A DNA stretch of 64,000 bases from an uncultured bacterium (GTDB taxonomy: Bacteria; Patescibacteriota; Minisyncoccia; Phycocordibacterales; GWA1-40-21). Numbering within the stretch: position 1 is the stretch's first letter; each line of letters opens with the position of its first letter. The DNA lies in NCBI GenBank assembly GCA_963798465.1, contig CAWCTC010000001.1:592465-656464 (forward strand), in the 5' to 3' direction. This document shows, piece after piece, positions 3,797-64,000 of this stretch. The notes under the pieces are model-generated. The model did not search any database, was not told the origin of the DNA, and was given only the letters and a program-made list of their open reading frames with translations. The translations under genes and the position numbers were made by a program.

Positions 3797-5831
3797 TTAT
3801 TTTTTCTTTTCCACCCTCTCCTTCAAAACCTTAATCTCATCTCTCAATATCGCCGCGGTTTCAAAATCCAAAATCTTCACCGCTGCGTTCATTTGAATTT
3901 CTTTTTGTTTTATCAGCTTCATTGGGCTCTTTTTCATCATTTCCTCATCAATTCGAACAAGCTCTTTCACGGCTTTGTCATGATCGCTTCTCATATGGTC
4001 TGTGATATCGTGAATCTTTTTGATAATCGTTTTTGGAGTAATGCCGTGCTTTGTATTGTAAGCAATTTGTTTTTCTCTTCTTCTATTTGTCTCACCTATC
4101 GCTCGTTCCATTGAGCCGGTAATACTGTCAGCATAAAGCACCACGCGTCCGAGCAACATTTCTCGCCGCACGTCCGATGGTCTGAATAAGCGAAGTATCG
4201 CTGAACGCAAAAATCCTTCCTTGTCCGCATCAAGAATTCCGATAAATTCAACTTCCGGCAAATCCAAACCTTCTCGCAAAAGGTTTACTCCGACAAGACA
4301 ATCAAACTTCCCTTTTCTGAAAGTTCGTAAGAATATCTATTCTGTCTATTGTTTTTATTTCGCTGTGCAAATATTCTGCTTTCACACCTTTTTCTTTCAA
4401 ATATTCGCTCAAATCTTCCGCCATCTTTTTTGTGAGAGTTGTGGCAATGACTCTTCCGCCGTTTTTCACAACTTTTTCTGTTTCTTCTATAAAATCAAAA
4501 ACTTGAGATTTATTTTTTCCTTTTACTTCGGTAATCGGCTTTACTTCCACAATCGGATCAATCAAGACCAGTCGGACGGATAATTTGCTCCACAATTTTC
4601 TCTGAATTTTCTTTTTCATAATCTCCCGGCGTGGCTGTAGTATAAATAATTTGATTTACTCTTTCTTCAAATTCATCAAACTTCAAAGGTCTGTTGTCTT
4701 TTGCTGATGGAAGACGAAAACCATAGTCAATCAAAGTCTTTTTTCTTGAAGCATCGCCGGCATACATTCCTCTTATCTGAGAAATAGTGACGTGTGATTC
4801 ATCTATAATAGTCAGAAAGTCTGGAGTTCCATCTTCTTTCTTTGGAAAATATTCCAGAAAGTATCTGGTGCTTCGCCCGGTGCTTTGCCGGAAAAATGTC
4901 TTGAATAATTTTCAATTCCATTGCAATAGCCGACTTCTCTTATGAGCGACAAATCGTAAGTTGTTCTTCTTCGAAGTCTTTCTGCTTCAAGATTCTTTCC
5001 CAGCTTTTTTTAATTCTTCAAGTCTGTTCTTCAAGCTCAGCTTTTATACTTTTGAAAGCTCTTTCTTGCTGTTCTTTGTCTGTAATAAAATGTTTTGCAG
5101 GAAAAATAAAAGTTGATTGTATTTCATCTTCAACAAGTTTTCGAGAAACTGAATCAATTCTTGAAATTTTCTTTATTCTATCTTCAGCAAAATCTAAGCG
5201 AATCAAAATCTTTTCATTTACCGGCATGACTTCAATAGAATTTCCAATAGCACGAAAAGTTCCCGGCTTTATATCGGAATTTGTTCTTTCAAAATGAACA
5301 TTGATAAGTTTTTTTATAAGGTCTTGCCTCGTAGTTTTTTCTCCAACTTTCAATTTTAATATTTACTTTTTCATATTCTTCTGGTGAACCCAAACCGTAA
5401 ATACAAGAAACCGATGCGACAATAATCACATCTTTTCTCGTAAGAAGTGCTTGCGTGGAAGCATGGCGAAGTCTGTCTATCTCTTCATTTATCATCGCTT
5501 CCTTTTCAATATAAGTATCGGTGACGGCATATAAGCTTCCGGCTGATAGTAGTCGTAATAAGAAACAAAATAATGCACGGCATTGTCTGGGAAAAATTCT
5601 TTGTACTCTTGTGCGAGCTGAGCTGCGAGAGTTTTGTTGTGAGCGATGACAAGCGTCGGCTTTTGAATTTTTTCAATAACATTTGCAACCGTAAAAGTCT
5701 TTCCGGAGCCAGTAACGCCAAAAAGAGTCTGCTTTTTCAAGACCTTTTTCTAACCCCGCAACCAACTCTTTAATTGCATTCGGTTGATCCCCCGCTGGCT
5801 TATATTCTGCTTTGATTTTGAATTTTGACAT
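3797..5831 (-). pseudogene. uvrB: Excinuclease ABC subunit B, disrupted by about 10 frameshifts
   Basis: Pieces occur in shifting frames: [66 protein letters not shown], and the C-terminal UVR domain. At 4290-4300 an extra A in an A-run breaks QKGKFDCLVGVNLLREG. Confidence 0.85.
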
Positions 5832-9630: not shown

Positions 9631-9640
9631 AATTAAATAC

Positions 9641-9676
9641 AAAAAAGGGCGGCACCTTCGGTGCCGCCCTTTTTTG
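9641..9676. terminator. Bidirectional GC-rich terminator (GGGCGGCACCTTCGGTGCCGCCC)
   Basis: A6 + 10-bp GC stem + T6, between convergent genes. Identical core at 26955..26977; near-identical at 60922..60944. Confidence 0.85.
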
Positions 9677-14653: not shown

Positions 14654-14719
14654 GATATTTATTCATTAAATACATGACAAACCTATTTTACATCATTTTT
14701 TAACAAATTCATTACGGGG
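14617..14719 (-). promoter_or_regulatory. H2 element copy C, around the SCP-protein start
   Basis: Arms CCCCGTAATGAATTTGT (14719->14703) and AAAAATTCGCACAGGG (14632->14617). The ATG at 14653 is inside the loop. Confidence 0.5.
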
Positions 14720-14829
14720 TTTTTATTCAAAAACATCATAATGCATATTATACAACATAAACGAAAAACGCACTACAGAAACGCATTTTTGCTCACATTT
14801 TTTTTATTTCCAAAAATATGCACAGATTT

Positions 14830-14921
14830 ACCCGAGAAAATTTTTGTTGATGAAAAAATTATGTATAATTTTTCAGCATTATACTAAGATATATACTGCG
14901 TTAACAAAAACTTTAACGGGT
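14830..14921 (-). repeat. H1 element copy C
   Basis: Arms ACCCGTTAAAGTTTTTGTTAA ... TCAACAAAAATTTTCTCGGGT. Two inner hairpins. The interior carries TAGTATAAT. Confidence 0.6.
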
Positions 14922-14935
14922 GATATAATTGGACC

Positions 14936-15328
14936 ATGAAATTTTTATCGTCTTTTCTCGGCTTCTTGAAATGGCATTATGGCAAAGCCTTAATTTCAAT
15001 TTTTTCATTTTGGAAAAATATTCTTATTTTCCTGTTTAATTTTTTCTCAATAAAAAGTTTAATCGGCAATTTTTTCACTCCATGGAAAAGACTCGCCGAC
15101 AGCTATCCGAAGCATTTTGATCTTGGAGTTTATTTCTCGACTTTCATCGTTAATATCCTGATGAGAATTGTTGGAATAATTTTGAGAACAATACTACTTG
15201 CTATCGGAATTACAACTTGCGCCATTTATATTATTCTTTTACCTTTTACACTTTTGATATGGCTCATATTACCTCCATTTATTGCCGGACTTATCATATA
15301 CGGACTTATACTTTTAATTTTTTCATAA
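14936..15328 (+). CDS. Small polytopic membrane protein, hypothetical
   Basis: Three to four hydrophobic helices. TGATATAAT lies 6 nt upstream of the ATG (leaderless-type arrangement). Confidence 0.6.
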   Translation: MKFLSSFLGFLKWHYGKALISIFSFWKNILIFLFNFFSIKSLIGNFFTPWKRLADSYPKHFDLGVYFSTFIVNILMRIVGIILRTILLAIGITTCAIYIILLPFTLLIWLILPPFIAGLIIYGLILLIFS

Positions 15329-15330
15329 AA

Positions 15331-15444
15331 TACTTGTCCCGTTATAAATAACGAGATGAATCAAACAGTAAATTAAATCAAAATAAAAAATATGACAAAA
15401 ATTATTTCACTAAATATTATAAGCCTTAAAATTTTATAACTGGG
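15331..15444 (+). promoter_or_regulatory. H3 intercistronic element copy 1
   Basis: TACTTGTCCCGTTATAAATAACGAGAT ... ATTTTATAACTGGG directly abuts ATG 15445. It has the same ends as 38002..38112 and a different interior. Confidence 0.5.
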
Positions 15445-17892
15445 ATGACAATCACACAATTTTTAAAACAAAGTTCCATATATAATGTCCTTGCGGTTGA
15501 ATCTTTATATTCTGAAAAATTCAGGAAAAATTTATCATTTATTTCAAAAATAATTATTTTTATTGTTGGTATTGCAATATTGCTCATATATTTTACAAAA
15601 CATTCCGATTCATATAGCAGCATAATATCAAAAGGTATCGGCCTAATTCTTGTTTGTGCAGGAATATATTTATGGTCTCATCTCACAAGCTATTATTTGG
15701 CCTCAACATATTATTTTGAAAAAGTTACAAAAAATAAATACAGCAAGGATGAACTTTACACTTTTTCCGCAGGAAGAATTCTTTATGCTGGAAGAAAAAC
15801 AGATATTCTACACGGATTTTTTGATTCTGATATTGGCAGGCTAATCCTTATCAGGCTTGGAATAAGTCCGAAAGACTCAAAATCTTTTTATAAAAATGAA
15901 AAGATAAATCCAGAAAAGGATATGCCTAAACCGGAAGATGAGATTTTGAAAGTAAAAGATATCGTAAAATATCTTTATACTAAGCCGGAATTCGCCAAAT
16001 TCTTAAATGATAAAGGAATTACTGACAAAGAACTTTTCGGCGCTGTCGAATGGGTAATTTATGAAATTGAAACTGCAGAATATAATTCGCAGTGGTGGAG
16101 ACCGGAATTTTTGGCAAAAACAAAAGGCATCGCTGATGATTGGTCTTTCGGAAAAACTTTTGTTCTAGATAGATACAGCAGAAATTTAATAAACGACAAT
16201 GAAGTTGATTCAGAAGCATTATCATTTTCAAATCGTGATGCCGAAGTGAGCCAAATTGAAAATGCCCTTTCACAGTCCAATAGTGCAAATGCAATGCTTG
16301 TCGGCGAACCAGGGCAAGGAAAAATGCAGGTCATCTGGAGTATGTGCAGAAATATTAAAAGCAAAAATATTGCTGATGCTTTGGGGAAGAAAAAACCAAC
16401 TTTGCTTATTGCAAATAATTTGGTTTCCATGTGTAAAGATAAAGATACTTTGGAAGATCAGCTTTCAAGAATATTTGTTGATGCAATAAAAGCCGGAAAT
16501 ATTATTTTAGTAATCGATAATTTTACAGAACTATTCAAGCATGCGGAAAGTTTGGGTGTTGATTTAATAAATCTTATAACTCCTTTCCTTTCCGGTTCAG
16601 CGATACAAATCGTCGCACTTGTGAACACTTCAGATTTCCACCAATATTTTGAAACGAATAAATCTTTGATGAATAATTTTGAAACTGTTTTAGTCAGGCC
16701 GCTCAATACCGATGAAATTATAAAAATAATTTATTCATCAGCCATTTCATCAGAAAACAATTACAAAATTTTCTTCACATATCAGGCAATCCAAGCTCTT
16801 GCAGAAAGTGCCGGCTATTATTTTTCAGGCGGAGTGACTTCAGATAAAGCGATGGATTTGCTTGATGAAATCGCGCCATGGGCAAAAAGAAAAGGATATA
16901 AAATTATCGGAAAAGATGAAGTTTTGGAATACATTCAGCAAAAAACAAATATTCCGACTGGTGGAAAATTGTCAGCGCAAGATAAAAATAAATTATTAAA
17001 TCTTGAAAGCTCGCTCAAAAAAAGAGTTATCGGACAAGAAGACGCGCTTATCGCTGTATCCAATTCTTTGAAAAGATCCCAAACTGGCGTGAGAAATCCC
17101 AACAAGCCAATCGGCTCTTTCCTATTCCTCGGACCAACTGGTGTCGGAAAAACTGAAACGGCAAAAGCTCTAGCTTTCACATTTTTCGGAAGCGAAACAA
17201 ATATGATGCGACTCGACATGTCCGAATATCAGACAGACGACGCGATGGAAAAACTCATCGGCTCGTTTGCTTCCGGCAAACCTGGAGTTTTTTCAAGCAT
17301 GATTCGAGAAAAACAATACGGCGTAGTTTTGCTTGATGAATTTGAAAAAACAAACAAAGATGTTTTGAATCTTTTCTTGCAGATTCTCGATGAAGGAGTT
17401 TTCTCGGATATGTCCGGCGAAAAAGTTAATACAAGAAATATTATTTTCATCGCAACTTCAAATGCCGGTGCTGATAAAATCTTCGCGATGGTTGAAGCTG
17501 GCAAAAATCCAAAAGACGCACAGGAAGAAATTATTGCCGATATTGTAAGCAAAGGATTGTTCAAACCGGAGCTTATAAATCGTTTTGATGCGACCATTAT
17601 TTACAAACCGCTTGAAAATGCCGACTTGCAGCAGATTGCAAAAATAATGCTCGGCAAGCTTGCAGACAGAATGAAAGAAAAAGGTTTGACTCTTCAAATT
17701 TCAGACGCACTTGTTGATTATGTCGTCAAAAATGGTTCAAACAAAGCCTTCGGCGCACGACCGATGAACAGATTCATCCAAGACAATGTCGAAGGAAATA
17801 TCGCAAACTTAATTTTGAAAGATGAAGCGGTTTCTGGAAAAACAATTAGTTTCTCAGTTGATGGAAATAATTTGTCAGCTAAAGTTTCGTAA
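15445..17892 (+). CDS. Clp/Hsp100-type AAA+ ATPase with N-terminal TM helices and a degenerate first ATPase domain
   Basis: D2 is intact: GPTGVGKTE, VVLLDEFEK, GARPMNR. D1 is degenerate: Walker A GEPGQGKM and Walker B ILVIDNFTE. Two N-terminal hydrophobic helices. Confidence 0.8.
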   Translation: MTITQFLKQSSIYNVLAVESLYSEKFRKNLSFISKIIIFIVGIAILLIYFTKHSDSYSSIISKGIGLILVCAGIYLWSHLTSYYLASTYYFEKVTKNKYSKDELYTFSAGRILYAGRKTDILHGFFDSDIGRLILIRLGISPKDSKSFYKNEKINPEKDMPKPEDEILKVKDIVKYLYTKPEFAKFLNDKGITDKELFGAVEWVIYEIETAEYNSQWWRPEFLAKTKGIADDWSFGKTFVLDRYSRNLINDNEVDSEALSFSNRDAEVSQIENALSQSNSANAMLVGEPGQGKMQVIWSMCRNIKSKNIADALGKKKPTLLIANNLVSMCKDKDTLEDQLSRIFVDAIKAGNIILVIDNFTELFKHAESLGVDLINLITPFLSGSAIQIVALVNTSDFHQYFETNKSLMNNFETVLVRPLNTDEIIKIIYSSAISSENNYKIFFTYQAIQALAESAGYYFSGGVTSDKAMDLLDEIAPWAKRKGYKIIGKDEVLEYIQQKTNIPTGGKLSAQDKNKLLNLESSLKKRVIGQEDALIAVSNSLKRSQTGVRNPNKPIGSFLFLGPTGVGKTETAKALAFTFFGSETNMMRLDMSEYQTDDAMEKLIGSFASGKPGVFSSMIREKQYGVVLLDEFEKTNKDVLNLFLQILDEGVFSDMSGEKVNTRNIIFIATSNAGADKIFAMVEAGKNPKDAQEEIIADIVSKGLFKPELINRFDATIIYKPLENADLQQIAKIMLGKLADRMKEKGLTLQISDALVDYVVKNGSNKAFGARPMNRFIQDNVEGNIANLILKDEAVSGKTISFSVDGNNLSAKVS

Positions 17893-21479: not shown

Positions 21480-21525
21480 TTGTTTTGATAATTTTAATAG
21501 GATTATTATAGCATTTTTTAAGCAT

Positions 21526-21560
21526 AAAAAAGGGCGGCCGCTTCGCGGCCGCCCTTTTTG
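21526..21560. terminator. Bidirectional GC-rich terminator (GGGCGGCCGCTTCGCGGCCGCCC)
   Basis: A-run + 10-bp GC stem + T-run. Identical core at 46461..46483. Confidence 0.85.
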
Positions 21561-21567
21561 ATTTGTG

Positions 21568-23064: not shown

Positions 23065-23097
23065 ATTATTAATTTACTTTTAGCCAAAACTCTCTTT

Positions 23098-23170
23098 TGT
23101 CATTCCCGCGCAGGCGGGAATCCAGGTTTAATTAAATTGATTCTGGATTCCCGTTTTCACGGGAATGACA
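23098..23170. mobile_element. MITE-like palindromic element (GTCATTCCCGCG.AGGCGGGAATCCAG family)
   Basis: TGTCATTCCCGCGCAGGCGGGAATCCAGG ... CTGGATTCCCGTTTTCACGGGAATGACA, 73 bp, within the helicase 5' leader. Confidence 0.75.
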
Positions 23171-23233
23171 ATCCAAAAAAGTTTTGTAACTAATAGATTG
23201 TTTTATCCTATTTCTATATAGGTTATTAAATGT

Positions 23234-24875: not shown

Positions 24876-24929
24876 TTTTGGATAAGACTAAAGTCCGATA
24901 TTAAATACAAATGCAGACCCATACTCGTG

Positions 24930-25043
24930 TGTCATTCCCGCGAAGGCGGGAATCCAGAATTAATAGTGTCGCACTTATATAGGACGATTGTGCGAGTGAC
25001 TTCGCTAAGTCAAACCTAGATTCCCGTATTCACGGGAATGACA
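24930..25043. mobile_element. Composite MITE (GTCATTCCCGCGAAGGCGGGAATCCAG arms with an inserted GTCGCAC...GTGCGAG module)
   Basis: Arms as in 23098..23170 and 62055..62127. The extra internal unit is also found at 35889..35933, 52566..52599 and inside 61427..61523. Confidence 0.7.
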
Positions 25044-25112
25044 AATGTCATCCAAAACTAATCTTAAAAGGACTGCCTGAAGGCGGGAGTTTTGCTCCCA
25101 AAGGTGGATAAT

Positions 25113-25377: not shown

Positions 25378-25482
25378 CCCAGTGTGAATTTTCATCTAAT
25401 TTAAAATTAATATAGAATTATTTTTTATTAGATATATCAATATTAAACAAAAAGAATAATTCTTGTAAAATTCTTTACTGGG
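25378..25482 (-). promoter_or_regulatory. H2 element copy (stand-alone; contains a 9-aa mini-ORF)
   Basis: Arms CCCAGTAAAGAATTTT (25482->25467) and GAAAATTCACACTGGG (25393->25378), a compensated CCCCG/CGGGG to CCCAG/CTGGG change. The ATG at 25395 gives MKIHTGQEK in a different frame from the other copies. Confidence 0.55.
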
Positions 25483-25489
25483 TGTCAAA

Positions 25490-25522
25490 TAAAAAGAGCT
25501 GGGAAAAATTTCTCCCAGCTCT
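25490..25522 (-). terminator. Intrinsic terminator
   Basis: AGAGCTGGGAGAAATTTTTCCCAGCTCT + T5 on the minus strand, after the stop at 25528. Confidence 0.75.
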
Positions 25523-26837: not shown

Positions 26838-26905
26838 AAGATTATGTTTATTAAATATCTTTTATATTTACGATATAGATTATTCTTGTAAAATTCTTTA
26901 CGGGG
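26802..26905 (-). promoter_or_regulatory. H2 element copy, around the exonuclease start
   Basis: Arms CCCCGTAAAGAATTTT (26905->26890) and GAAAATTCACACGGG (26816->26802). TTTACA follows the 5' arm. The ATG at 26837 is in the loop. Confidence 0.55.
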
Positions 26906-26948
26906 TCCATGAACCATATTATACTAAAAATAGTTTAAAAAACTAATC

Positions 26949-26984
26949 AAAAAAGGGCGGCACCTTCGGTGCCGCCCTTTTTTG
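26949..26984. terminator. Bidirectional GC-rich terminator (same core as 9647..9669)
   Basis: AAAAAAGGGCGGCACCTTCGGTGCCGCCCTTTTTTG. Confidence 0.85.
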
Positions 26985-27660: not shown

Positions 27661-28875
27661 TTATACCACAAATGATTTTTTGCTTTTCCACATTGTAGAA
27701 ATTGCAAAGAAAATAAGTCCCAAAATAACTATTCCGCCGGAAACTAAGAATGCCGTTGTTGAGCCATATGCTTGCCACAAAAATCCGCCACCGATTCCAG
27801 CTATCAAAGCTCCAAAACCAACTGCAGCATTTAAAAGTCCCATCGCACTGCCGCGAACTTCATTGTCAGAAATTTTCGCTGTAAGCGAGCGCTGGACGCC
27901 ATCGGTAAGAGCCGGGAATAAACCGAGCAATAAGAAACTAAAAGCTAGAATCCACGGCGAATGCGCGAGATTCAGGAAAAAATAACTGATCAGAAGAATA
28001 AAGTATCCGATGAATATTATTATCCTTGTGCCGAATTTGTCGCTCATTTTTCCGGCGAACATTGAGAAGCCTGCGTATGAAAGATTATAAATCATGTAAA
28101 AAAGCGGAATGTCGGCAATCATAAGTCCGATTGATTCAGTTTTCAAAAGTATGACGGCTATCGGCAAGCTTCCGATAGATAAAATAAAAATCGCAATGAT
28201 AAATAATTTGAATTTTCCGGAAAGATTTTTGAAGCCCGAAATAAAACTTGTTTTTGCTTTTGCATTTTTAATCGCGACATCCGAAATAAAAAATAAAGTT
28301 AAAATTGTAAAAATTCCAACGACAAACGCCGTCAAAAATACCGTATTGAAATGCAAAGGGTAAAATCTCAAAATCAGATAAGCGACAAGCGGTCCGAGAA
28401 TCGAACCCATTGTGTCCATCGCCCTGTGATATCCGAAAGACCTGCCGAGCTCTTCTTTCGGCGAAGAAAGAGAAATTATCGCATCGCGCGGAGGATCACG
28501 AAATCCCTTTCCTATCCTGTCAGCGACGCGAAGTCCGAGTGCCGCGCCGACTGTTGAAGTAAAAATATAAAAAGGCCTCGTCAGAACAGAAAAAACGTAA
28601 CCGAAAACAATAAGTGGCTTTCTACTTTGGAATTTATCTGAAATAACTCCGGAAAATATTTTGAAAAAATTCGAAAGTCCTTCCGCAACTCCGTCAACGA
28701 GCCCGAGCGAAGCTGCGCCGGCTTTCAAAACAGAAGTGAAAAACGCCGGAAAAACCGCAAAGACCATCTCCGATGAAAAATCATTGAAAAGACTCGTGAG
28801 TCCAAGAAAGAAAATATTTTTCGGGAGTCCCAAAATTCTTTTTTCAGTTTTTATTTCTTGAATCGGCTGTTCCAT
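27661..28875 (-). CDS. MFS transporter
   Basis: About 12 predicted TM helices, and GKMSDKFGTR, a typical MFS loop 2-3-like motif. Confidence 0.75.
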   Translation of the reverse strand: MEQPIQEIKTEKRILGLPKNIFFLGLTSLFNDFSSEMVFAVFPAFFTSVLKAGAASLGLVDGVAEGLSNFFKIFSGVISDKFQSRKPLIVFGYVFSVLTRPFYIFTSTVGAALGLRVADRIGKGFRDPPRDAIISLSSPKEELGRSFGYHRAMDTMGSILGPLVAYLILRFYPLHFNTVFLTAFVVGIFTILTLFFISDVAIKNAKAKTSFISGFKNLSGKFKLFIIAIFILSIGSLPIAVILLKTESIGLMIADIPLFYMIYNLSYAGFSMFAGKMSDKFGTRIIIFIGYFILLISYFFLNLAHSPWILAFSFLLLGLFPALTDGVQRSLTAKISDNEVRGSAMGLLNAAVGFGALIAGIGGGFLWQAYGSTTAFLVSGGIVILGLIFFAISTMWKSKKSFVV

Positions 28876-37482: not shown

Positions 37483-37992
37483 GTGAAAGAAAAATTTATA
37501 TCACTTTACAACAAGCTTTCGGATTCCGTATTCAGATACTGCCTTTTCAGAGTATCCGACAGAGATTCTGCACTTGATATCACCCAAGAAACTTTTACAA
37601 AATATTGGGATGCGCTTGCCGGAGGCCAGAAAATAAATAATGACAGAGCGCTCATATTCACCATCGCGAGAAATTTGATAATTGACCATTACAGAAAAAA
37701 GAAATCAGTTTCGCTTGAAGCGATGACGGAAACGGAGGATGGAGAAAATTTCGAGGATTTTATCCTGGTGGAAGACAACAAAAAATACGAAATCGAATTG
37801 GAAACGGAAGCAAGATTTTTGATCAACAAGATAATTGAATTGCCAAAATCATACCAGCAAGTCGTCTATCTCAGATTCGTCGAAGATTTGAAACCGGATG
37901 AAATAGCAAAAATTCTCGGAATATCAGTGAGCGCAGCTTCGGTAAGAATCCACAGAGGAATTGAAGAATTGAAAAAATTGACGGGATACTAA
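37483..37992 (+). CDS. ECF (group 4) sigma-70 family RNA polymerase sigma factor
   Basis: Region 2 (SALDITQETFTKYW, IFTIARNLIIDHYRKK) and region 4 (YQQVVYLRFVEDLKPDEIAKILGISVSAASVRIHRG). Confidence 0.8.
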   Translation: MKEKFISLYNKLSDSVFRYCLFRVSDRDSALDITQETFTKYWDALAGGQKINNDRALIFTIARNLIIDHYRKKKSVSLEAMTETEDGENFEDFILVEDNKKYEIELETEARFLINKIIELPKSYQQVVYLRFVEDLKPDEIAKILGISVSAASVRIHRGIEELKKLTGY

Positions 37993-38001
37993 AAATAAAA
38001 A

Positions 38002-38112
38002 TACTTGTCCCGTTATAAATAACGAGATAAATCAAAATAAAGTTTAAATAAAATTTAAAGATAAGCATAATCAGGTCGACAAATATTAGAAGCATAAAAA
38101 TTTATAACTGGG
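38002..38112 (+). promoter_or_regulatory. H3 intercistronic element copy 2
   Basis: TACTTGTCCCGTTATAAATAACGAGAT ... ATTTATAACTGGG abuts ATG 38113. ACGGGAT (37981), ACGAGAT (38022) and ACTGGGAT (38107) are all complementary to the single TCCCGT. Confidence 0.5.
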
Positions 38113-38862
38113 ATGGAAGATAAAAAATTAAAAAATGTAATAGGCCAGATAAAAAAAGTTTCTCTTTCGCAAGATGAGAAAAGCAAGATTTTGCATAATC
38201 TTTCTGTCTACGCCGATTTTCACAGAGCGATATTGAGCCCGTCTTCGCTGTTTTCATATTTTAAAAATTCAAATAAAAAATTCGCATATGTTTTGGCTTC
38301 CGTAATCATACTCATACTCGCCGGAGGAACAGCAGTTTACGCATCGGAAGATTCCCTTCCCGGAGATTTGCTCTACCCTATCAAAACAAAAGTTGTCGAA
38401 CCGATTAAAGTCGCTTTGGCAACAACTCCGGCAGCAAAAGCTGATGTCGAAGCAAGTTTGGCTGTCGAAAGATTGAAAGAAGCAGAAACTTTAGATCAAA
38501 AAGGCAAATTAACTCCCAATATTAAAAAAGAAATAGATGGAAACCTATCAAATGACATGTCTAATTTTTTCAAAATAAAAAATCAGATGGAAGGAACAAC
38601 GACTGACAGCACAAGTTCTGAAATTGAAAATACAAAAATAAAAGCTGAATTTGAAAATAGGCTAGGATCTCATAAAGAGATGTTCAATAAATTGAATCAT
38701 GAAAATTCATATAATCCAGCACAAAAAATGTTCCAAGCGACATCAACCGGAACTTCGACAAATTCATATATCAGAGGAAACGCAAAAAATATGAAAATGC
38801 CTGATAGCAGAAGCACGAGCTCAGGATATACGAAAGAAAATCCATTTCAAAACAATTATTAA
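38113..38862 (+). CDS. Putative anti-sigma factor (single TM helix, DUF5667-like extracytoplasmic domain)
   Basis: Position immediately after the ECF sigma gene. TM helix FAYVLASVIILILAGGTAVYA, then LPGDLLYPIKTKVVEPIKV. Confidence 0.45.
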   Translation: MEDKKLKNVIGQIKKVSLSQDEKSKILHNLSVYADFHRAILSPSSLFSYFKNSNKKFAYVLASVIILILAGGTAVYASEDSLPGDLLYPIKTKVVEPIKVALATTPAAKADVEASLAVERLKEAETLDQKGKLTPNIKKEIDGNLSNDMSNFFKIKNQMEGTTTDSTSSEIENTKIKAEFENRLGSHKEMFNKLNHENSYNPAQKMFQATSTGTSTNSYIRGNAKNMKMPDSRSTSSGYTKENPFQNNY

Positions 38863-43304: not shown

Positions 43305-43597
43305 AAAATACCAGGTTTTCTTTACGGTATAGGCGTCGGCCACCGCCGACTTCTAAACACAACTCGCTTCACTCAAGTGATTACACTTTCGCGAATCGAT
43401 CTCCGTTAAAAAATAAAGGAACGCTTGCCCTTTGTTCATATCAATTCACATATTTTTTTGATAATAGTCAATACAAGAATCAGTTTATTTTTTTAAAAAA
43501 ATTTTATATAATACAAACATAACTTTTAGTTAAGTGCACTAAATTTTAAACATCCGTAATAGGTGTTTTTTAATTTAGTTTTTATTAATTTTAATTC

Positions 43598-43730
43598 ACC
43601 CGCTAAAGTTTTTGCTGACGTGTTGAAAATGAAAATTTATTAGATTTATCTTTAGTATAAGGTTGTCTATATAAAATAAACATATTCATATAATCTCAAC
43701 ACATTTTCATCAGCAAAAATTTTCTCGGGT
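43598..43730 (+). repeat. H1 element copy D, 10 nt upstream of the ppdK start
   Basis: Arms ACCCGCTAAAGTTTTTGCTGA ... TCAGCAAAAATTTTCTCGGGT. The interior contains TCATATAAT (43689..43694) and a bulged extension TGAAAATG/CATTTTCA. Confidence 0.6.
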
Positions 43731-43739
43731 AAAAAATCA

Positions 43740-46445
43740 ATGGCAACAAAAAATAAAAAGTATGTTTATGCGTTCGAAGAAGGAGATAAAGAGATGAGAG
43801 AAATCTTGGGAGGCAAAGGTGCAAATTTGGCAGAAATGAAAACACTGGGAATAAATGTTCCACCAGGATTTACAATATCAACCGAAGCTTGCGCACTTTA
43901 TTATACAGACGGGAAAAAAATAAATTCTGAAGTCAAAAAACAAACAGATATTAAACTCGCCCAGCTTGAAAAAAAGATGGGAAAGAAACTCGGAGACGCG
44001 AACGATCCCCTTCTTGTTTCTGTCCGTTCAGGAGCTGCGGCTTCCATGCCTGGAATGATGGATACAATTTTAAACCTCGGTTTGAATGACAAATCTGTTT
44101 TAGGTTTGGCAAAAATTACAAATAATCCTCGTTTTGCATGGGATTCTTACAGAAGATTAATACAAATGTTTGGAAATGTTGTTATGGAAATGGGACATGG
44201 CGACTTTGAAGAAATATTGGAAAATGTCAAAGACACAAAAGGTGCAAAATATGATACAGACCTTACAGCAGAAGATTTACAAGAAATAGTTGTAAAATAC
44301 AAAGCAAAAATAAAAGAAACCAAAGGAACAGAATTTCCTCAAGATCCTATAAAACAAATGTATATGGCAATAAATGCCGTCTTTAATTCTTGGAATAATT
44401 ACAGAGCGATAAGATACAGAGAAATTAATAGTATCAAAGGCCTTATCGGAACAGCTGTGAATATTCAGTCAATGGTATTCGGCAATCTTGGAGATGATTC
44501 TGGAACCGGAGTTTGCTTCACAAGAAATCCTTCAACCGGAGAAGCAAAATTCTACGGAGAATATTTGATGAACGCACAAGGAGAAGATGTCGTTGCCGGA
44601 ATAAGAACTCCTCTGACTGTTGCATCACTCGCAAAACAAAATCCAAAAATATACAAAGAGCTTGTAAATACCTGCAACAAAGTCGAGAAACATTACAAAG
44701 ATATGCAGGATATGGAATTCACGATTGAAAGAGGTGTACTTTATATTCTTCAAGCAAGAAATGGAAAAAGAACAGCCGCAGCTTCCGTAAAAATTGCAGT
44801 TGATTTGGTAAAAGAAAAATTGATTTCACTCGAGACGGCAATTTTAAGAATCGATCCGAATCAATTAAATCAATTATTGCACAGACAGCTTGATCCAGTC
44901 GCAGTTTCAAAAGCCAGAATAATTGCACAAGGTCTTCCAGCTTCACCAGGAGCATCTGTCGGAGAAGTTGTATTCACCGCATCTGAAGCATTTGAAAAAG
45001 CAAAGTCAGGTCTTGATGTAATACTTGTCAGAACTGAGACATCGCCAGAAGATATCGACGGAATGCATTCTTCAAAAGGAATCTTGACGGCAAGAGGAGG
45101 AATGACATCACACGCTGCTGTTGTCGCGAGAGGAATGGGAACTCCATGCGTTGCAGGCTGTGCAGATATTCAGATAGATGAAAAAGCAAAAACACTTACG
45201 ATAAAAAGCCAAGGAATTGTAATTAAAGAAGGAGAATTTATTTCTCTTGACGGTTCAACAGGAAAAGTTTACGAAGGAAAATTAAATACAGAGGATGCTT
45301 CCCTTCTTGGAAACTTTGGAACTTTGATGACATGGTCGGATAAATTCAGAAAAATCGGAGTCAGAACAAATGCAGACACTCCTCATGATGCGGAAGTCGC
45401 AAGAAAATTCGGCGCAGAAGGTATTGGTCTTTGCAGAACTGAACACATGTTTTTTGAAGGAGCCCGCATAAAAGCGATAAGAGAAATGATACTTTCAAAC
45501 GATTTGGAAGCGAGAAAAAAAGCTTTGGCAAAATTATATCCATATCAAAAAGGAGATTTCGCCGGACTTTTTGCAGCTATGAATGGACTTTCAGTTACAA
45601 TAAGATTGCTCGATGCTCCACTCCATGAATTCTTGCCACAAAAAGAAGTAGATATAGTTGAAATAGCAAAAGAAATGAATGTCAGCGTTGCCACGCTCAA
45701 AGCAAAAATTGAAGACTTGCACGAATTCAATCCGATGCTCGGACACAGAGGCTGCAGACTTGCCATCACTTTCCCTGAAATCTATGACATGCAAGCAGAA
45801 GCTATTATTGATGCCGCAATCGAAGTGAAGAAAAATGGAAAAGCAAAAGCTGTCAGACCGGAAATAATGATTCCTATTGTTGCTACGACAAAAGAATTTA
45901 CAATATTGAGAGATAGGATTGTAAAAATTGTTGAAGAAAAAATAAAAGCATCAAAAACAAAAATTGAATACAAGATAGGAACTATGATTGAGGTTCCAAG
46001 AGCCGCTTTGATTGCAGACAAACTAGTTACAGCTGGTGCAGAATTCTTCTCATTCGGAACAAACGACTTAACACAAATGGGAGCAGGATTATCACGCGAC
46101 GACGCAGGAAAATTCTTGAAGGAATATGTCGCTCAAGATATTTTTGCTTATGATCCATTTGAAGTTTTAGATCAAGAAGGTATTGGCGAACTTATCAGAA
46201 TTGCAGTTGCAAAAGGAAGAAGCGTGAAAAAAGATTTGAAGATTGGTATTTGCGGAGAACACGGAGGAGAACCAAAAACAGTTGAATTCTGCTGTAGAGA
46301 AGGATTGAATTATGTTTCTTGTTCACCATTTAGAGTTCCAATCGCAAGACTAGCCGGAGCTCAAGCTGTAGTAAGAGAACTTATGAATAAGAAAAGTTCA
46401 GTAAAAAAATCAGCAAAAAAAACAGTTAAAAAAGGTAAGAAATAG
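43740..46445 (+). CDS. ppdK: Pyruvate, phosphate dikinase
   Basis: GGKGANLAEM, TARGGMTSHAAVVARGMG (catalytic His), GLCRTEHMF, FSFGTNDLTQ, CGEHGG. 901 aa. Confidence 0.95.
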   Translation: MATKNKKYVYAFEEGDKEMREILGGKGANLAEMKTLGINVPPGFTISTEACALYYTDGKKINSEVKKQTDIKLAQLEKKMGKKLGDANDPLLVSVRSGAAASMPGMMDTILNLGLNDKSVLGLAKITNNPRFAWDSYRRLIQMFGNVVMEMGHGDFEEILENVKDTKGAKYDTDLTAEDLQEIVVKYKAKIKETKGTEFPQDPIKQMYMAINAVFNSWNNYRAIRYREINSIKGLIGTAVNIQSMVFGNLGDDSGTGVCFTRNPSTGEAKFYGEYLMNAQGEDVVAGIRTPLTVASLAKQNPKIYKELVNTCNKVEKHYKDMQDMEFTIERGVLYILQARNGKRTAAASVKIAVDLVKEKLISLETAILRIDPNQLNQLLHRQLDPVAVSKARIIAQGLPASPGASVGEVVFTASEAFEKAKSGLDVILVRTETSPEDIDGMHSSKGILTARGGMTSHAAVVARGMGTPCVAGCADIQIDEKAKTLTIKSQGIVIKEGEFISLDGSTGKVYEGKLNTEDASLLGNFGTLMTWSDKFRKIGVRTNADTPHDAEVARKFGAEGIGLCRTEHMFFEGARIKAIREMILSNDLEARKKALAKLYPYQKGDFAGLFAAMNGLSVTIRLLDAPLHEFLPQKEVDIVEIAKEMNVSVATLKAKIEDLHEFNPMLGHRGCRLAITFPEIYDMQAEAIIDAAIEVKKNGKAKAVRPEIMIPIVATTKEFTILRDRIVKIVEEKIKASKTKIEYKIGTMIEVPRAALIADKLVTAGAEFFSFGTNDLTQMGAGLSRDDAGKFLKEYVAQDIFAYDPFEVLDQEGIGELIRIAVAKGRSVKKDLKIGICGEHGGEPKTVEFCCREGLNYVSCSPFRVPIARLAGAQAVVRELMNKKSSVKKSAKKTVKKGKK

Positions 46446-46454
46446 ACAATCAAA

Positions 46455-46489
46455 TTAAAAGGGCGGCCGCTTCGCGGCCGCCCTTTTAA
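46455..46489. terminator. GC-rich terminator (same core as 21532..21554)
   Basis: AAAAGGGCGGCCGCTTCGCGGCCGCCCTTTT. Confidence 0.85.
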
Positions 46490-46584
46490 ATTATTTATAA
46501 AGTAGTACACTTATTCTAAATCAGTTCTTTATAATTCTCTCAAATGAGAGATTAAATATAAAAATCCTTAAGGAGGTTTTGCTT

Positions 46585-46833
46585 ATGGCAACAAGACTTG
46601 ATGAATTAGAAGAAGTTATTAAAAAACACAAGGAAGAGGAGGCGAAGAAAATAGTGAGAGATGACGCTGCATATATTAAAAGGATGTGCAGAGGAAAAAG
46701 AAATTATTATTTACTGGCTGACCCTGGCTATCCTTATGAAAAAATTCGGGTAACAAAAAAAGTTTATATTGAAAATCTGTTGAGAGACAAGCAAGACAAA
46801 AGAGATGATTATTTCTTATTCCATGGATGCTAA
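46585..46833 (+). CDS. Small protein, 82 aa
   Basis: AAGGAGG lies 8 nt upstream of ATG 46585. A 10-aa ORF with its own AGGAG follows at 46851..46883. Confidence 0.5.
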   Translation: MATRLDELEEVIKKHKEEEAKKIVRDDAAYIKRMCRGKRNYYLLADPGYPYEKIRVTKKVYIENLLRDKQDKRDDYFLFHGC

Positions 46834-56268: not shown

Positions 56269-56841
56269 TTATTTTATCAACTCCTCGACATTTCCCGAAA
56301 GGTCTGTGGTGTCTCCCTCGACCTTCGAAACATCTCCGTAAATATTGGTAACATCGCCTTTTATATTTGTCACATGGCCTTTTATATTGCTGACGTAACC
56401 TTTAATGTTTGTGACATTGCCGGTTATATTTGTCACATCTCCTTGCAGATCGGAAACATCGCCAATTATTTTCGTCGTATCGCCTTCAATATGGCTTACA
56501 TCGCCGTGAATATTTGTAACATCACCGCTGATATTGGAAACATCGCCGACAATTCCGCTCAAGTCTCCGCGGATTTTTGAAACATTTCCGCGAATTTTTG
56601 ACACATCGCTTTTGATATTAGTCACATCGCCTTTTATGTTCGAAACATCGCCATGCAAGCCGGAAATATCTCCGCTGATGTTTGAAACGTCGCCGGAAAT
56701 TTTATGTATGCTCAAATCGCCGGATATTTTTGAAACATCGCCTTTTATGGATTTAAAATCGCCCATTATATTGTCATGCAAGCCTGTGACATTTTCCGTA
56801 TTCAGCTGTTTGAAAGCTATATTTATTTTTTTGAGTGTCAT
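56269..56841 (-). CDS. Heptad-repeat protein: about 22 tandem GDV(S/T)NIx units, no signal peptide
   Basis: GDVSNIS GDISGLH GDVSNIK GDVTNIK SDVSKIR GNVSKIR ... GDVTNIY GDVSKVE GDTTDLS. TGATATCAT lies 6 nt upstream of the ATG. The plus-strand ORFs 56263..56580 and 56534..56851 are shadows of the repeat. Confidence 0.7.
   Translation of the reverse strand: MTLKKINIAFKQLNTENVTGLHDNIMGDFKSIKGDVSKISGDLSIHKISGDVSNISGDISGLHGDVSNIKGDVTNIKSDVSKIRGNVSKIRGDLSGIVGDVSNISGDVTNIHGDVSHIEGDTTKIIGDVSDLQGDVTNITGNVTNIKGYVSNIKGHVTNIKGDVTNIYGDVSKVEGDTTDLSGNVEELIK
56290..56760 (-). repeat. 21-bp tandem coding repeat underlying the heptad protein
   Basis: Periodicity of GGNGAYGTNWCNAAYATHNNN read over about 470 bp. 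Confidence 0.75.
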
Positions 56842-60014: not shown

Positions 60015-60142
60015 ACCCGAGAAAATTTTTGCCAATAAAAATTGCGCGACTTTAAGGTTTAACTAGATAACATTTATAACTCTAACCCAATATCACAAAA
60101 ATCGCAATTTTTGCTAGCGCGTTGGCAAAAACTTTAACGGGT
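60015..60142 (-). repeat. H1 element copy E
   Basis: Arms ACCCGTTAAAGTTTTTGCCAA ... TTGGCAAAAATTTTCTCGGGT. Flanks extend the stem (AAAT/ATTT). Confidence 0.6.
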
Positions 60143-60908: not shown

Positions 60909-60915
60909 AATTAAT

Positions 60916-60950
60916 TATAAAGGGCGGCACCTCCGGTGCCGCCCTTTATA
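60916..60950. terminator. GC-rich terminator (GGGCGGCACCTCCGGTGCCGCCC variant)
   Basis: Differs in the loop by one nucleotide from the 9647 and 26955 copies. Confidence 0.8.
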
Positions 60951-60970
60951 ATTAATTTTTTGAACTTTAA

Positions 60971-61992: not shown

Positions 61993-62054
61993 AGACGATA
62001 TACTAACAAAATACGACATAAAGTCAACTGATTTTTAAAAGCAATTTATCTTTA

Positions 62055-62127
62055 TGTCATTCCCGCGAAGGCGGGAATCCAGGTTGAATTGAATTAATTC
62101 TGGATTCCCGCCTTCGCGGGAATGACA
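62055..62127. mobile_element. MITE-like palindromic element (GTCATTCCCGCGAAGGCGGGAATCCAG family)
   Basis: TGTCATTCCCGCGAAGGCGGGAATCCAGG ... CTGGATTCCCGCCTTCGCGGGAATGACA, 73 bp. Confidence 0.75.
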
Positions 62128-62174
62128 TACAAAAATATACAAATCAAGGTTTTTTTGCTATGCTTATTTCATAA

Positions 62175-64000
62175 ATGAAAAAAGATAAACAATTCTGGAG
62201 GAAGGACAGTAATGACAGCAGGAAAACTGAACATCAGGGAAAACTGAAGACTCTGACAGGAAAAATCAAAGCAATTCGCGGCCACACCGCCTATTTTATA
62301 GCCGACACAAACAATCTTGAAGTTGAAATCCCGACAAGACAGATAAACACTGCAATGTCCGGCGACAAGGTTGAAATAAAACTATTCAAGAAAAATAAAA
62401 CCGGAGTTCATGAAGGCGAAGTAATAAAAGTCATAAGTCGTGCAAAAAATTATTTTGTCGGCGTGATTGAAATTTCCGAAAAAGGAATTCTCGTCGTGCC
62501 CGATGATAGAAGAGTAAAAATTTCCGTAAAAATCGCAAAAGAAAAAGCCGGCACGCTGAAAAATGACGACAAAGTCAGAGTTAAAATTACAAAATGGGTT
62601 CAAACACCTGGTTTTTCTGAAGGAGAAATTGTAAATATTCTTGGAAAAAAAGGCGACAATTCTACAGAAATGAATTCCATCGCGGTAGATAAAGGTTTCG
62701 ACATGGATTTTTCGGAAAGAGTTTTAAATGAATCGCACAATATTTTCGAGCATAACAAAACAATTTCGCCCGAGGAAATTTCAAAAAGAAAAGATTTGAG
62801 AAATACTTTCACTTGCACGATTGATCCAAAAACCGCAAAAGATTTTGACGATGCCATTTCATTCAAGAAACTTCCAAATGGAAATCTTGAAATCGGTATT
62901 CATATCGCCGACGTTTCTTATTATGTCACTGAAAAAAGTGAGCTCGACAAAGAAGCTTACGAACGCGGTTGTTCGGTTTATTTGCCCGATAGAACGATTC
63001 CAATGCTTCCCTTTGAGCTTTCGGACAATCTTTGCTCTTTGAGTGAAGGCGACGAAAAACTTGCCTTTTCTGCAATTTTTGAAATCACCCCCCATGCAAA
63101 AGTCCATACAAGATGGTTTGGGAAATCCGTCATCAAATCCGCAAAAAGATTCACTTATGAAAGCGCGCAGGAAATATTAGATAGTGGCAACTCCTCTTTG
63201 TCATTGCAAGTGGAACGAAGTAATCCAGAAAAATTAGAAATAGATTCCCGTCTTCACGGGAATGACAACATGAAATATTTTGAAGCACTTGATACTTTGA
63301 ACAAGATTTCCAAAATATTCAGAAAGGAAAAAACGCAGAAAGGCGCGATAGATTTTGAATCAGGAAGAAATCGCTTTTGAGCTCGACACGGAAGGCAGAC
63401 CAATCAGGATTTACAAAAAACAAAGACTCGACACGCACAAGCTCGTCGAGGAATTCATGCTTCTCGCAAATAAAGAAGTCGCGGAGTTCGTTTATAAATA
63501 TGAAAAAAATTCCGGAAAACTTTTTCCTCTGCCATATCGTATTCACGATTTGCCAGACAAAGAAAGAATCGCTGAGCTTGCAGTTTTCGTAAAAGCTTTA
63601 GGCCATGAGCTTTTCATCGGACCAATCTGGAAATGTCACCGGCAAGGATATGCAGGCGCTTTTTGAGCAGATTGAAGGCAAGGCTGAGGAAGCACTGGTA
63701 AAAACCGCAGCGATCCGCTCGATGTCAAAAGCTATTTATTCAACAAAAAATATCGGTCACTTCGGACTTGGCTTTTGAATATTACGCGCACTTCACCTCG
63801 CCTATCCGAAGATATCCGGATCTTTTAGTCCACAGAATTTTAAATAAAATTTTAACAAAAGAGAGCATCGCCCACGAAAAGTCTGCTGACCTCGTGGCAA
63901 GAGAAAAAAATCTCGCATTTTATGAAAAAGCTTGTCTTCACTCGACCGACCAAGAAATAAAAGCTTCAGAAGCTGAGCGCGATGGCAGAAAATACAAACA
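62175..64000 (+). pseudogene. rnr: Ribonuclease R, at least 3 frameshifts and an in-frame MITE insertion; runs off the window end
   Basis: N-terminal OB/CSD region. RNB motifs CTIDPKTAKDFDDAIS, IGIHIADVSYYV and [23 protein letters not shown] occur in different frames. Breaks are near 63365, 63610 and 63775. Confidence 0.8.
63199..63267 (+). mobile_element. 69-bp MITE inserted in frame in the RNase R coding sequence
   Basis: TGTCATTGCAAGTGGAACGAAGTAATCCAG ... AGATTCCCGTCTTCACGGGAATGACA. 69 nt is 23 codons, read through as SLQVERSNPEKLEIDSRLHGNDN without a stop. Confidence 0.7.

Follow-up and report, generated by a model that had tools for sequence, protein, structure and literature searches.

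What is a repeated sequence doing that fills the gap between the gene for an extracytoplasmic function (ECF)-type sigma factor and the gene for its putative anti-sigma factor, and that ends at the very base before the start codon of the latter? This question arises from a 64-kb stretch of DNA, hereafter called the window, from whose first letter all coordinates are counted. The repeat, named H3, had been regarded in an earlier note as a candidate attenuator or translational-coupling switch that sets the ratio of sigma to anti-sigma factor. By its common ends, H3 is one dispersed repeat family of Paceibacteria, a group within the Candidate Phyla Radiation (CPR). Its unusual property is directly visible in the sequences: H3 is placed with single-nucleotide precision before start codons, in an organism that appears from its gene starts to use mainly leaderless mRNAs.

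A repeat family flush with start codons

The 27-mer of the 5' box (TACTTGTCCCGTTATAAATAACGAGAT) has two exact plus-strand matches in the window (15331 and 38002); no additional match was found there with up to three mismatches, and none occurred in 100 shuffles. The 3' box (TTTATAACTGGGATG) likewise matches exactly twice, at 15433 and 38101, and each time it finishes in the start codon of a long open reading frame (ORF; 15445-17892 and 38113-38862). The two loci with common ends that the earlier note had described were recovered as such, and the Pfam matches (an ECF-type sigma factor, a DUF5667 protein and a ClpB-like ATPase) agree with the genes it had suggested there. The positions given for the element were also essentially right, except that the unit begins with the A of 'AC' (38003 and 15332) and not with the preceding T. 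The identity between the two 5' boxes spans 31 nt (AAAATAC...GAT), and the 3' box comprises about 25 nt common to both copies, terminating in GGG/ATG. The interiors had been called unrelated. This is true for the central ~40 nt, which differ throughout, but both copies have AATCAAA after the 5' box and AAATATTAnAAGCnTAAAA before the 3' box, and in the whole family the pairwise identity of the interiors is weakly but significantly above that of shuffles (42.5% vs 38.2 +/- 0.9%).

For the census of the family, two scans with a 19- or 20-mer of the 5' box as probe, one through GTDB species genomes and the other through JGI/ENA metagenomes, returned 33 loci. Nine of them match no more than the 19-mer, in a context that is G+C-rich or unrelated (L001, L006/13/15/16/18, which represent one identical sequence, L008, L012 and L029). 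The remaining loci carry the extended box AC(T/C)TGTCCCGTTATAAATAACGAGAT, and at every one of them whose contig continues, GC-N8/9-TTATAAC(T)GGG follows ~110 nt downstream; a full 5' box without its 3' partner, which the earlier note had named as the observation that would speak against the element, was not encountered in continuing sequence. A family profile searched with nhmmer over ~500 kb of the fetched loci added only two diverged copies, the downstream copy of a tandem pair (L019) and L033, all others having been recovered by the exact 19-/20-mer. The same search found no antisense copies, and partial copies only at contig ends. Furthermore, a scan of viral contigs for the two-box pattern gave no matches, and none of the over-long murE gene calls has an N-terminal extension containing FITGM, the translation of the 3' box, so that no sign of hidden H3 copies was found in these calls.

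In total, 21 copies are known, ~19 of them beyond the window, and the named records among them are metagenome-assembled genomes of Candidatus Paceibacterota. All copies are in sense orientation. In 20 of the 21, GGG (or GTG) stands directly before the ATG of an ORF; the last of the 21 has GGG-T at its end and runs into a second, head-to-tail copy (L019/L026). The 3' box, the length and the flush ATG were observed independently of the probe. The length varies between 110 and 119 nt and is most often 113 nt, a value reached exactly at 9 independent loci. The consensus ends of the family read 5' ACYUGUCCCGUUAUAAAUAACGAGAUGA and 3' GC-N8/9-UUAUAAC(U)GGG, and the interiors consist of 54% A and 25% T, i.e. 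they have an A-over-T skew. A T precedes the element in ~13 of 19 copies, while the left flanks otherwise vary (T, G, C, A). The downstream genes are 16 different and unrelated ones: tsaE, a murE-type ligase, thrS, an RNase T-like exonuclease, rpsS, signal peptidase I (lepB), a prepilin peptidase, recA, a 5'-3' exonuclease, ackA, small membrane proteins, the ClpB-like gene and the DUF5667 gene. In the genomes that bear H3, the operon is broken and rpsS is its first gene; elsewhere, its homologues come after rplB.

Several metagenome contigs start (L019) or end (L025/L027, L026, and L040 at 4313-4337) inside the 5' box, and L040, which comes from another assembly, breaks within the 5' box of the copy at 15332-15444. 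Such breaks are expected because the box belongs to a multi-copy repeat, and H3 thereby explains why they recur.

Filled and empty sites between promoter and start codon

At the sigma/anti-sigma junction the element is missing from 7 of 7 related loci (L030-L033, L037-L039), where gaps of 4-53 nt separate the two genes. Four of these loci come from syntenic relatives (sigma factor, DUF5667 protein, hemerythrin) with an anti-sigma identity of 50-58% and 4-25 nt from the sigma stop to the ATG. The other three are contigs of a closer relative with 92-97% nucleotide identity on both sides, in which an unrelated 53-nt spacer ends with AAAATAAAAAA directly before the ATG; the blastn alignment of the window with L037 breaks exactly at 37991/38113. 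Where the window reads taaAAATAAAAAT[AC...CTGGG]ATG, L030 reads taaGAATTTAAAAAAAT ATG. The N-terminus of the DUF5667 protein, MEDKKLKNVI, is common to the orthologues, and a near-identical anti-sigma gene is present on 27 contigs. Since the site is empty in every relative examined, including the strains with 92-97% identity, the H3 copy at this junction is, judged by comparison, a recent insertion.

The murE genes provide a second set of sites. They are empty in L034 (TGaTATTAT-atattt-ATG, i.e. TGaTATTATatattt before the ATG), L035 (TATTAT-gtaaaat-ATG; TATTATgtaaaat before the ATG) and L036 (TAAAAT-taatt-ATG), filled in L003 (TATTAT-atatat-[AC...CCGGG]-ATG; flank TATTATatatat) and occupied by the tandem pair in L019/L026 (TATTAT-ataggc-[AC...GGG]-T-[AC...GGG]-ATG; flank TATTATataggc). 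The arrangement "-10 box, 6 nt, ATG" is thus replaced by "-10 box, 6 nt, element, ATG". According to the murE protein identities L019 is the outgroup of L003, L034 and L035, hence the same murE site was either hit twice or precisely vacated at least twice. No consistent direct repeat, and thus no target-site duplication, was found between filled and empty sites (AAAAAT[..]ATG vs AAAAAAT ATG; atatat[..]ATG vs atattt ATG). Altogether, the filled and empty sites show H3 to behave as a discrete unit whose gain or loss takes place en bloc, between position -1 and the ATG.

The meaning of this position depends on how genes start in this organism. None of the 47 ATG genes in the window has GGAG, GAGG or AGGA 4-10 nt upstream, and 21 of the 47 have TANNNT 5-10 nt upstream, often in the form TGnTATAAT (e.g. 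at the starts 8824, 10283, 14936, 27661-28875 on the minus strand, and 51382). An AAGGAGG precedes the ATG at 46585, which is one clear Shine-Dalgarno exception. At 6-7 of ~17 independent H3 loci (L002, L003, L004, L005, L022, L023, L026), the first A of the element has a -10 box in front of it at a distance of 6-7 nt, and there H3 is predicted to form the entire 5' untranslated region, from +1 to -1 of the ATG. The comparison of sites shows that H3 would provide an otherwise leaderless, non-Shine-Dalgarno gene with a leader, the first A of the element replacing the old start site where the -10 box is present. At the other loci, including that of the ClpB-like gene, H3 follows an upstream ORF or a terminator and no obvious promoter is visible. 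Because such loci exist, the shared denominator is the start codon and not the transcription start.

Pairing of the ends and a possible gate on the start codon

As had been proposed, the ends of H3 are complementary. The pairing of CCCGTTATAAAT with ATTTATAAC(T)GGG has duplex energies of -15.4 and -14.1 kcal/mol in the two window copies, which were reached by 0 of 2000 shuffles and by 0.3% of random windows of equal length. For the 5' box alone, a hairpin of 10 bp beginning with nt 3 is predicted (-6.3 to -7.2 kcal/mol); it accounts for the conservation reaching GAGAUGA. The end-to-end helix, or panhandle, is part of the minimum free energy (MFE) structure in 19 of 21 copies, with a mean long-range pairing probability of 0.92. 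It comprises 16 bp: nine A-U-rich pairs are followed by a bulged U and by CCC:GGG, and the AUG takes part in the final U-A, G.U and U.G pairs. Only these terminal 16 bp are predicted to pair, while the A-rich interior stays unstructured. The expectation that the long-range pairing covers the anti-sigma AUG was borne out in the predictions: for the sigma copy the probability of CCC:GGG is 1.00, and A, U and G of the AUG are paired with probabilities of 0.99, 0.93 and 0.56, respectively. The A of the AUG reaches at least 0.92 in the 19 copies with a panhandle MFE and 0.76 in L033, and it is predicted to remain at 0.92 or above from 10 to 55 C. Opening of the 3' arm would cost ~7 kcal/mol, and local hairpin and panhandle are mutually exclusive in the predictions. 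Three competing G-rich partners had been listed for the 5' arm, and they are found at 37981, 38022 and 38107 as described. The local hairpin is a true competitor, but ACGGGAT at 37981 is locus-specific coding sequence, namely the sigma codons Thr-Gly-Tyr, which read ACAGGATAC or ACTGGATAT in relatives; as the second window copy has no equivalent, it is not part of H3.

Sequence variation is mostly compatible with the pairing. In L033 both sides of the panhandle changed (GUUGUAA/UUACAAC), a compensatory exchange of A-U by G-C. L009 has a U.G pair, L005 a G.U pair without the bulge, and in L003 and L011 the bulged U is replaced by C. In the local hairpin, U26C leads to a G-C pair in the first (upstream) copy of the L019 tandem, and G27A to a U-A pair in the window copy and L017.

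Our favoured reading, to which we give slightly less than an even chance, is that H3 represents a mobile leader cassette with palindromic ends, by which translation or processing is gated at the start codon. The 5' box would fold first into its 10-bp hairpin at the 5' end of the RNA. Once the 3' arm is made, the 16-bp panhandle, favoured by ~7 kcal/mol, would pair the ends and bury the AUG, and H3 would thereby act in cis as a gate on translation initiation of the downstream gene. The gate would be closed when the panhandle is formed. It might be open when the local hairpin keeps hold of the 5' arm or, at the window loci, when termination of translation on the upstream ORF brings a ribosome to the base of the stem, which it melts. 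The panhandle could possibly serve as a nuclease cleavage site, too. The element would have spread like a small non-autonomous mobile element, with the resident copies being retained through selection on host gene expression. The mobile part of this proposal is suggested by the block-wise gain and loss, the tandem pair, the invariant inverted ends around a drifting middle of fixed length and the assembly breaks. That the copies are kept for an effect on the downstream gene at the RNA level is suggested by the sense orientation and zero distance to the ATG in 20 of 20 cases, the A-over-T skew, the tolerated variation of the bulge and the conservation of resident 3' boxes. Of the two modes in the earlier note, coupling is plausible at the two window loci, where the upstream ORFs stop 10 nt (sigma factor) and 3 nt (ClpB-like locus) before the element, since a terminating ribosome could open the base of the stem at this distance. 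The attenuator does not stand, because no hairpin followed by a U-tract exists on the sense strand.

The sole terminator-like match in H3 is the 5' box on the minus strand. Together with its usual AAAATAC flank it scores as an intrinsic terminator at 38008-38027 and 15337-15356 (8-bp stem, then CAAGTATTTT), and it could halt antisense transcription arriving from the downstream gene.

Several observations weigh against the proposed gate. The folding energy of the whole element is ordinary (z = -1.2 and -0.8). The arms are nearly invariant rather than freely covarying, which points beyond mere pairing to recognition by a protein, for instance a nuclease or a transposase; and the 5' box, identical in 19 copies, was itself the search probe, so that its constancy is partly by construction. 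Only one double compensatory change was found, too few for statistics. L033, in which it occurs, also loses one pair of the local hairpin and one C:G pair (GGG to GUG), which makes the switch between two structures the weaker half of the model compared with the panhandle. The transcription starts at the H3 loci are predicted ones. Moreover, a panhandle that stays closed up to 55 C in front of essential genes such as thrS, rpsS, recA and lepB implies that some opening or processing step must exist. Finally, the near-constant length of 113 nt is not accounted for by an RNA gate.

Some of these features, i.e. the near-constant length and the invariant ends around a drifting middle, are known from REPINs (PMC3116915) and would fit a purely selfish miniature element of the REPIN type or of the type of miniature inverted-repeat transposable elements (MITEs), in which the ends serve a transposase, 'T/ATG' is a target choice and the RNA folds are a by-product without a role for the host. 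The block-wise gain or loss at the same nucleotide in close relatives, the head-to-tail pair in L019/L026, the assemblies broken within the 5' box, the lack of a visible target duplication and the T before ~13 of 19 copies can all be read in this way. We nevertheless regard the selfish element as unlikely. A target of 3-4 nt cannot result in 20 of 20 gene-adjacent copies that are all sense with zero bases to the ATG, and no copy was found elsewhere in intergenic DNA, although two other repeat types of the window, H1 and the REP-like doublets (see below), occupy such sites. In vertically inherited copies (tsaE in L002/L023; rpsS in L007/L014/L021), 1 of the 60 positions compared within the 3' 30 nt is changed, as against 20 of 112 in the interior; a resident 3' box that is conserved while the interior diverges is not the even decay expected of a purely selfish copy. 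Furthermore, no transposase was linked to H3 and no RAYT found in the 64 kb searched, a part of a 733-kb contig, whose ORFs were not screened for Y1_Tnp. A DDE-type MITE was rejected, since target duplication and conserved core are missing.

The near-constant length and the need to express essential genes in spite of a buried AUG leave room for a more radical idea. H3 could land at +1 and be transcribed as a leader, and a panhandle-directed cut at GGG/AUG would restore a leaderless or nearly leaderless mRNA, which would render the insertion harmless in the manner of an intron. RNase III acting on the stem, or RNase Y acting after the G run, would cut at or next to GGG/AUG. Such processing would explain why only flush insertions survived, why the constant ends are paired and why a start codon with a predicted buried state is tolerated in essential genes; nonetheless, we consider it rather improbable.

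The invariance of the arms and the near-constant 113 bp, which suits a phasing constraint, might instead reflect events at the DNA level. The 5' palindrome CGTTAT-AA-ATAACG, a 6-2-6 palindrome at +10 to +23 of the predicted transcript, and a half-site at the 3' end could be operators looping the ~90-bp spacer, or the 3' end could be an outward promoter firing at the ATG. This explanation is very doubtful. Compared with the 5' half-site, the one at the 3' end has a 1-nt insertion which is T, C or deleted; this is harmless in a bulged RNA helix but not in a protein site. In L033 half-sites 1 and 3 change together and half-site 2 changes elsewhere, which degrades the palindrome, and the A-over-T skew of the interior is a strand-specific feature. 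The calculated stabilities of sense and antisense strands (arms -14.8 vs -12.8, 5' box -6.3 vs -7.4 kcal/mol) do not discriminate RNA from DNA. A sigma-70 promoter in the 3' box was rejected, because TATAAC lies 4 nt from the ATG, has no T at -7 and lacks the TGn extension, compared with 6-11 nt and TGnTAnnnT for promoters in the window. The attenuator or translational-coupling switch evolved to set the sigma to anti-sigma ratio is the least probable explanation and as a general one already contradicted: the anti-sigma AUG is predicted to be paired and the sigma stop is close enough to the element (10 nt) for a terminating ribosome to touch the base of the stem, but all seven related junctions lack H3, 15 other unrelated genes have it, several copies come after a terminator plus promoter, where coupling would have no upstream ORF, and a sense-strand terminator is missing.

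Other identities were tried and rejected. A promoter in the 5' box (TATAAA, 7 nt and the ATG of a mini-ORF) has neither a T at -7 nor a usable -35 element, and the ATG of the mini-ORF is not conserved. A conserved upstream ORF ending at the TAA of TTATAAC is present in ~8 copies and broken elsewhere by non-triplet indels. Leader peptide frames (ATG AAT CAA TAA and M..LIGLNNL*) occur in some copies and are broken in others by ATA/ATT/ACG or by stops, and the distance from GC to TTATAAC varies between 8 and 9 nt. An RNA thermometer of the fourU or ROSE-like type does not agree with a start region predicted to be closed up to 55 C. Searches over the window revealed no Rfam match at the gathering threshold, with chance-level scores only (E > 1) around both copies, and no tRNA-like genes.

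Neighbouring repeats, known systems and meaning of the placement

The features of both window loci are compiled in the table, together with the copies of H1.

Table. Positions of the two H3 copies, their parts and the adjoining genes, and of the H1 copies (window coordinates unless a contig is named)
Feature	Position	Strand	Remarks
H3 copy, sigma/anti-sigma junction	38003..38112	+	110 nt, AC... to ...CTGGG; boundaries set against relatives without the element
Local hairpin of the 5' box (UUGUC.CGUUA-UAAA-UAACG.GAUAA)	38005..38030	+	RNAfold -7.2 kcal/mol (predicted); 38005-38020 double as 5' arm of the panhandle
A-rich interior	38031..38099	+	poorly conserved; no stable predicted structure
3' arm AUUUAUAAC-U-GGG and anti-sigma start codon	38100..38116	+	ATG 38113-38115; predicted to pair with the 5' arm
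Second H3 copy, junction of 130-aa membrane ORF and ClpB-like AAA+ gene	15332..15444	+	113 nt
5' hairpin of second copy (predicted)	15334..15359	+	
3' arm of second copy	15433..15448	+	includes ATG 15445-15447
ECF-type sigma factor gene	37483..37992	+	Pfam Sigma70_r2, Sigma70_r4_2; stop TAA 37990-37992
DUF5667 protein gene, putative anti-sigma	38113..38862	+	Pfam PF18915; start codon abutted by the element
130-aa membrane ORF	14936..15328	+	upstream of second copy; own leaderless promoter TGATATAAT + 6 nt + ATG
ClpB-like AAA+ ATPase gene	15445..17892	+	Pfam AAA_2, ClpB_D2-small; start codon abutted by second copy
Promoter-like site TTGAAA-16-AAAAAT in the end of the sigma gene	37969..37996	+	prediction by consensus scan; predicted start ~38003, the first base of the element
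H1 copies	285-370, 2373-2503, 14831-14920, 43599-43729, 60016-60141; L033 11010-11140	both orientations	variable distance to genes

H3 is not the only repeat of this kind in these genomes. The H1 elements have 86-131 nt with terminal arms of ~20 bp (TTTACCCGAGAAAATTTTTGcc... and ...ggCAAAAACTTTAACGGGTAAA). Their arms covary (GCCAA/TTGGC, GGCTGA/TCAGCC, GUUGAUG/GCGUUAAC with G.U pairs, and at one position A.C to G.U), which is much richer than in H3 and suggests a recurring theme of paired-end RNAs, or of hairpins in single-stranded DNA, in these genomes. H2 boxes (AAAATTCTTTACGGGG on the plus strand) lie 45-70 nt upstream of minus-strand genes at 236-266, 2320-2345, 14697-14727, 25460-25490 and 26883-26913, and in at least two cases a complementary GAAAATTCACACGGGG falls within the first 12 codons of paralogous genes (starts 192 and 26837). 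The superfamily of H1, H2 and H3 assumed in the earlier note comes down to CCCG...CGGG ends and an A/T-rich context; as H1 varies in length and in distance to the ATG, we do not uphold it. A third paired-end family of ~100 nt, CCCCGACACCTATTTT...AAAATAGGTGTGGGGG, occurs in related genomes (L028 831-930; L019 3566-3669) with arms that differ while the pairing is kept. REP/REPIN-like inverted doublets of the hairpin GTCATTCCCGCGnAGGCGGGAATCCAG are located at 23095-23178, 24924-25054, 62049-62138 and 63232-63278, and also upstream of murE in a relative (L035 9890-9970). The window also contains near-identical bidirectional terminators AAAAAAGGGCGGCACCTTCGGTGCCGCCCTTTTTT (9640-9676, 21525-21561, 26948-26984, 46454-46490, 60915-60951) and ~20 tandem 21-nt units at 56311-56773, which encode a heptad-repeat protein (ORF 56269-56841, minus strand).

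A real leader was observed at the PPDK gene (window 43500-43740 vs L030 18600-18790), where ~90 nt after TATAAT (43507-43512) are kept in a distant relative. This conserved stretch has no match to an Rfam family and is a candidate cis-regulatory RNA. After the common TTAATTTTAATT, the window has an H1 copy and L030 a different, perfect 45-nt hairpin (TGAAGTTACAT...ATGTAACTTCA), both ~10 nt before the ATG.

Among regulatory RNAs, H3 resembles those with long-range fold-back control of a translation start, such as the hok mRNA (fold-back of the 5' and 3' ends, with metastable 5' hairpins) and the coat-replicase coupling of MS2. In these, an early local 5' hairpin is in competition with a more stable long-range pairing that hides the start, and translation of an upstream ORF can open the start region. 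However, these are devices of single genes that evolved in place, whereas H3 is portable, serves many genes and occurs in an organism without Shine-Dalgarno sequences. Putative mobile promoters, or reused upstream regions, were reportedly described by Matus-Garcia, Nijveen and van Passel in 2012. They resemble H3 in that homologous upstream sequences precede non-homologous genes within and between genomes, but H3 has no convincing promoter, is situated 3' of the host promoter and has the paired ends as its defining feature.

In its anatomy, H3 is closest to REPINs, which are REP doublets forming hairpins that are mobilised by RAYT tyrosine transposases (Bertels & Rainey 2011, PMC3116915). Both have two conserved inverted ends around a less conserved spacer of kept length, ~100 nt in total, compensatory changes across the hairpin, no visible target duplication and vertical persistence (PMC3116915). 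However, REPINs are randomly distributed in extragenic space in both orientations, whereas H3 is always sense and flush with the start codon; the REPIN spacer also pairs into the hairpin, whereas that of H3 is A-rich and unpaired; and the GTAG-type REP head is absent from H3. With MITEs, H3 has the terminal inverted repeats in common (UCCC(-)GUUAUAAAU vs AUUUAUAAC(U)GGGA), but neither target-site duplication nor a conserved core or near-identical copies within a genome. Correia elements (CREE) of Neisseria (PMC2649163) are miniature elements of ~100-150 bp in inverted repeats as well, present or absent between strains; they are co-transcribed with the neighbouring gene, their hairpin is bound or cut by RNase III and they alter adjacent expression. 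However, insertion of CREE takes place at TA, which is duplicated, and the elements contain IHF sites and give rise to promoters at their ends, none of which applies to H3, and they lie at variable distance from genes in either orientation with a conserved core, while H3 is locked to the ATG. Hence, H3 shares its anatomy with REPINs and its lifestyle with Correia elements, and fails the defining distribution features of both. What is new is the placement at start codons; the theme of miniature palindromic repeats, of which H3 is a variation, is known. In the literature searched, we found no link between Parcubacteria or CPR and leaderless mRNAs or H3-like repeats.

CPR bacteria, or Patescibacteria, make up a large share of bacterial diversity and are almost uncultured, and to our knowledge the control of their gene expression is essentially unknown. 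In this context, a portable module of 113 nt was repeatedly set, exact to the nucleotide, between the promoters and the start codons of housekeeping genes in a non-Shine-Dalgarno, mostly leaderless organism. If the gating is true, H3 would be a shared post-transcriptional handle on many core genes of a reduced genome, and also a natural test bed for ribosomes that are adapted to leaderless mRNAs without Shine-Dalgarno sequences and meet a structured leader. If H3 is only selfish, it would be a small mobile element that targets start codons, and we know of no other such element. Either way, the combination of 5' box, 3' box and ATG provides a sequence tag for true start codons in the genomes of Paceibacteria.

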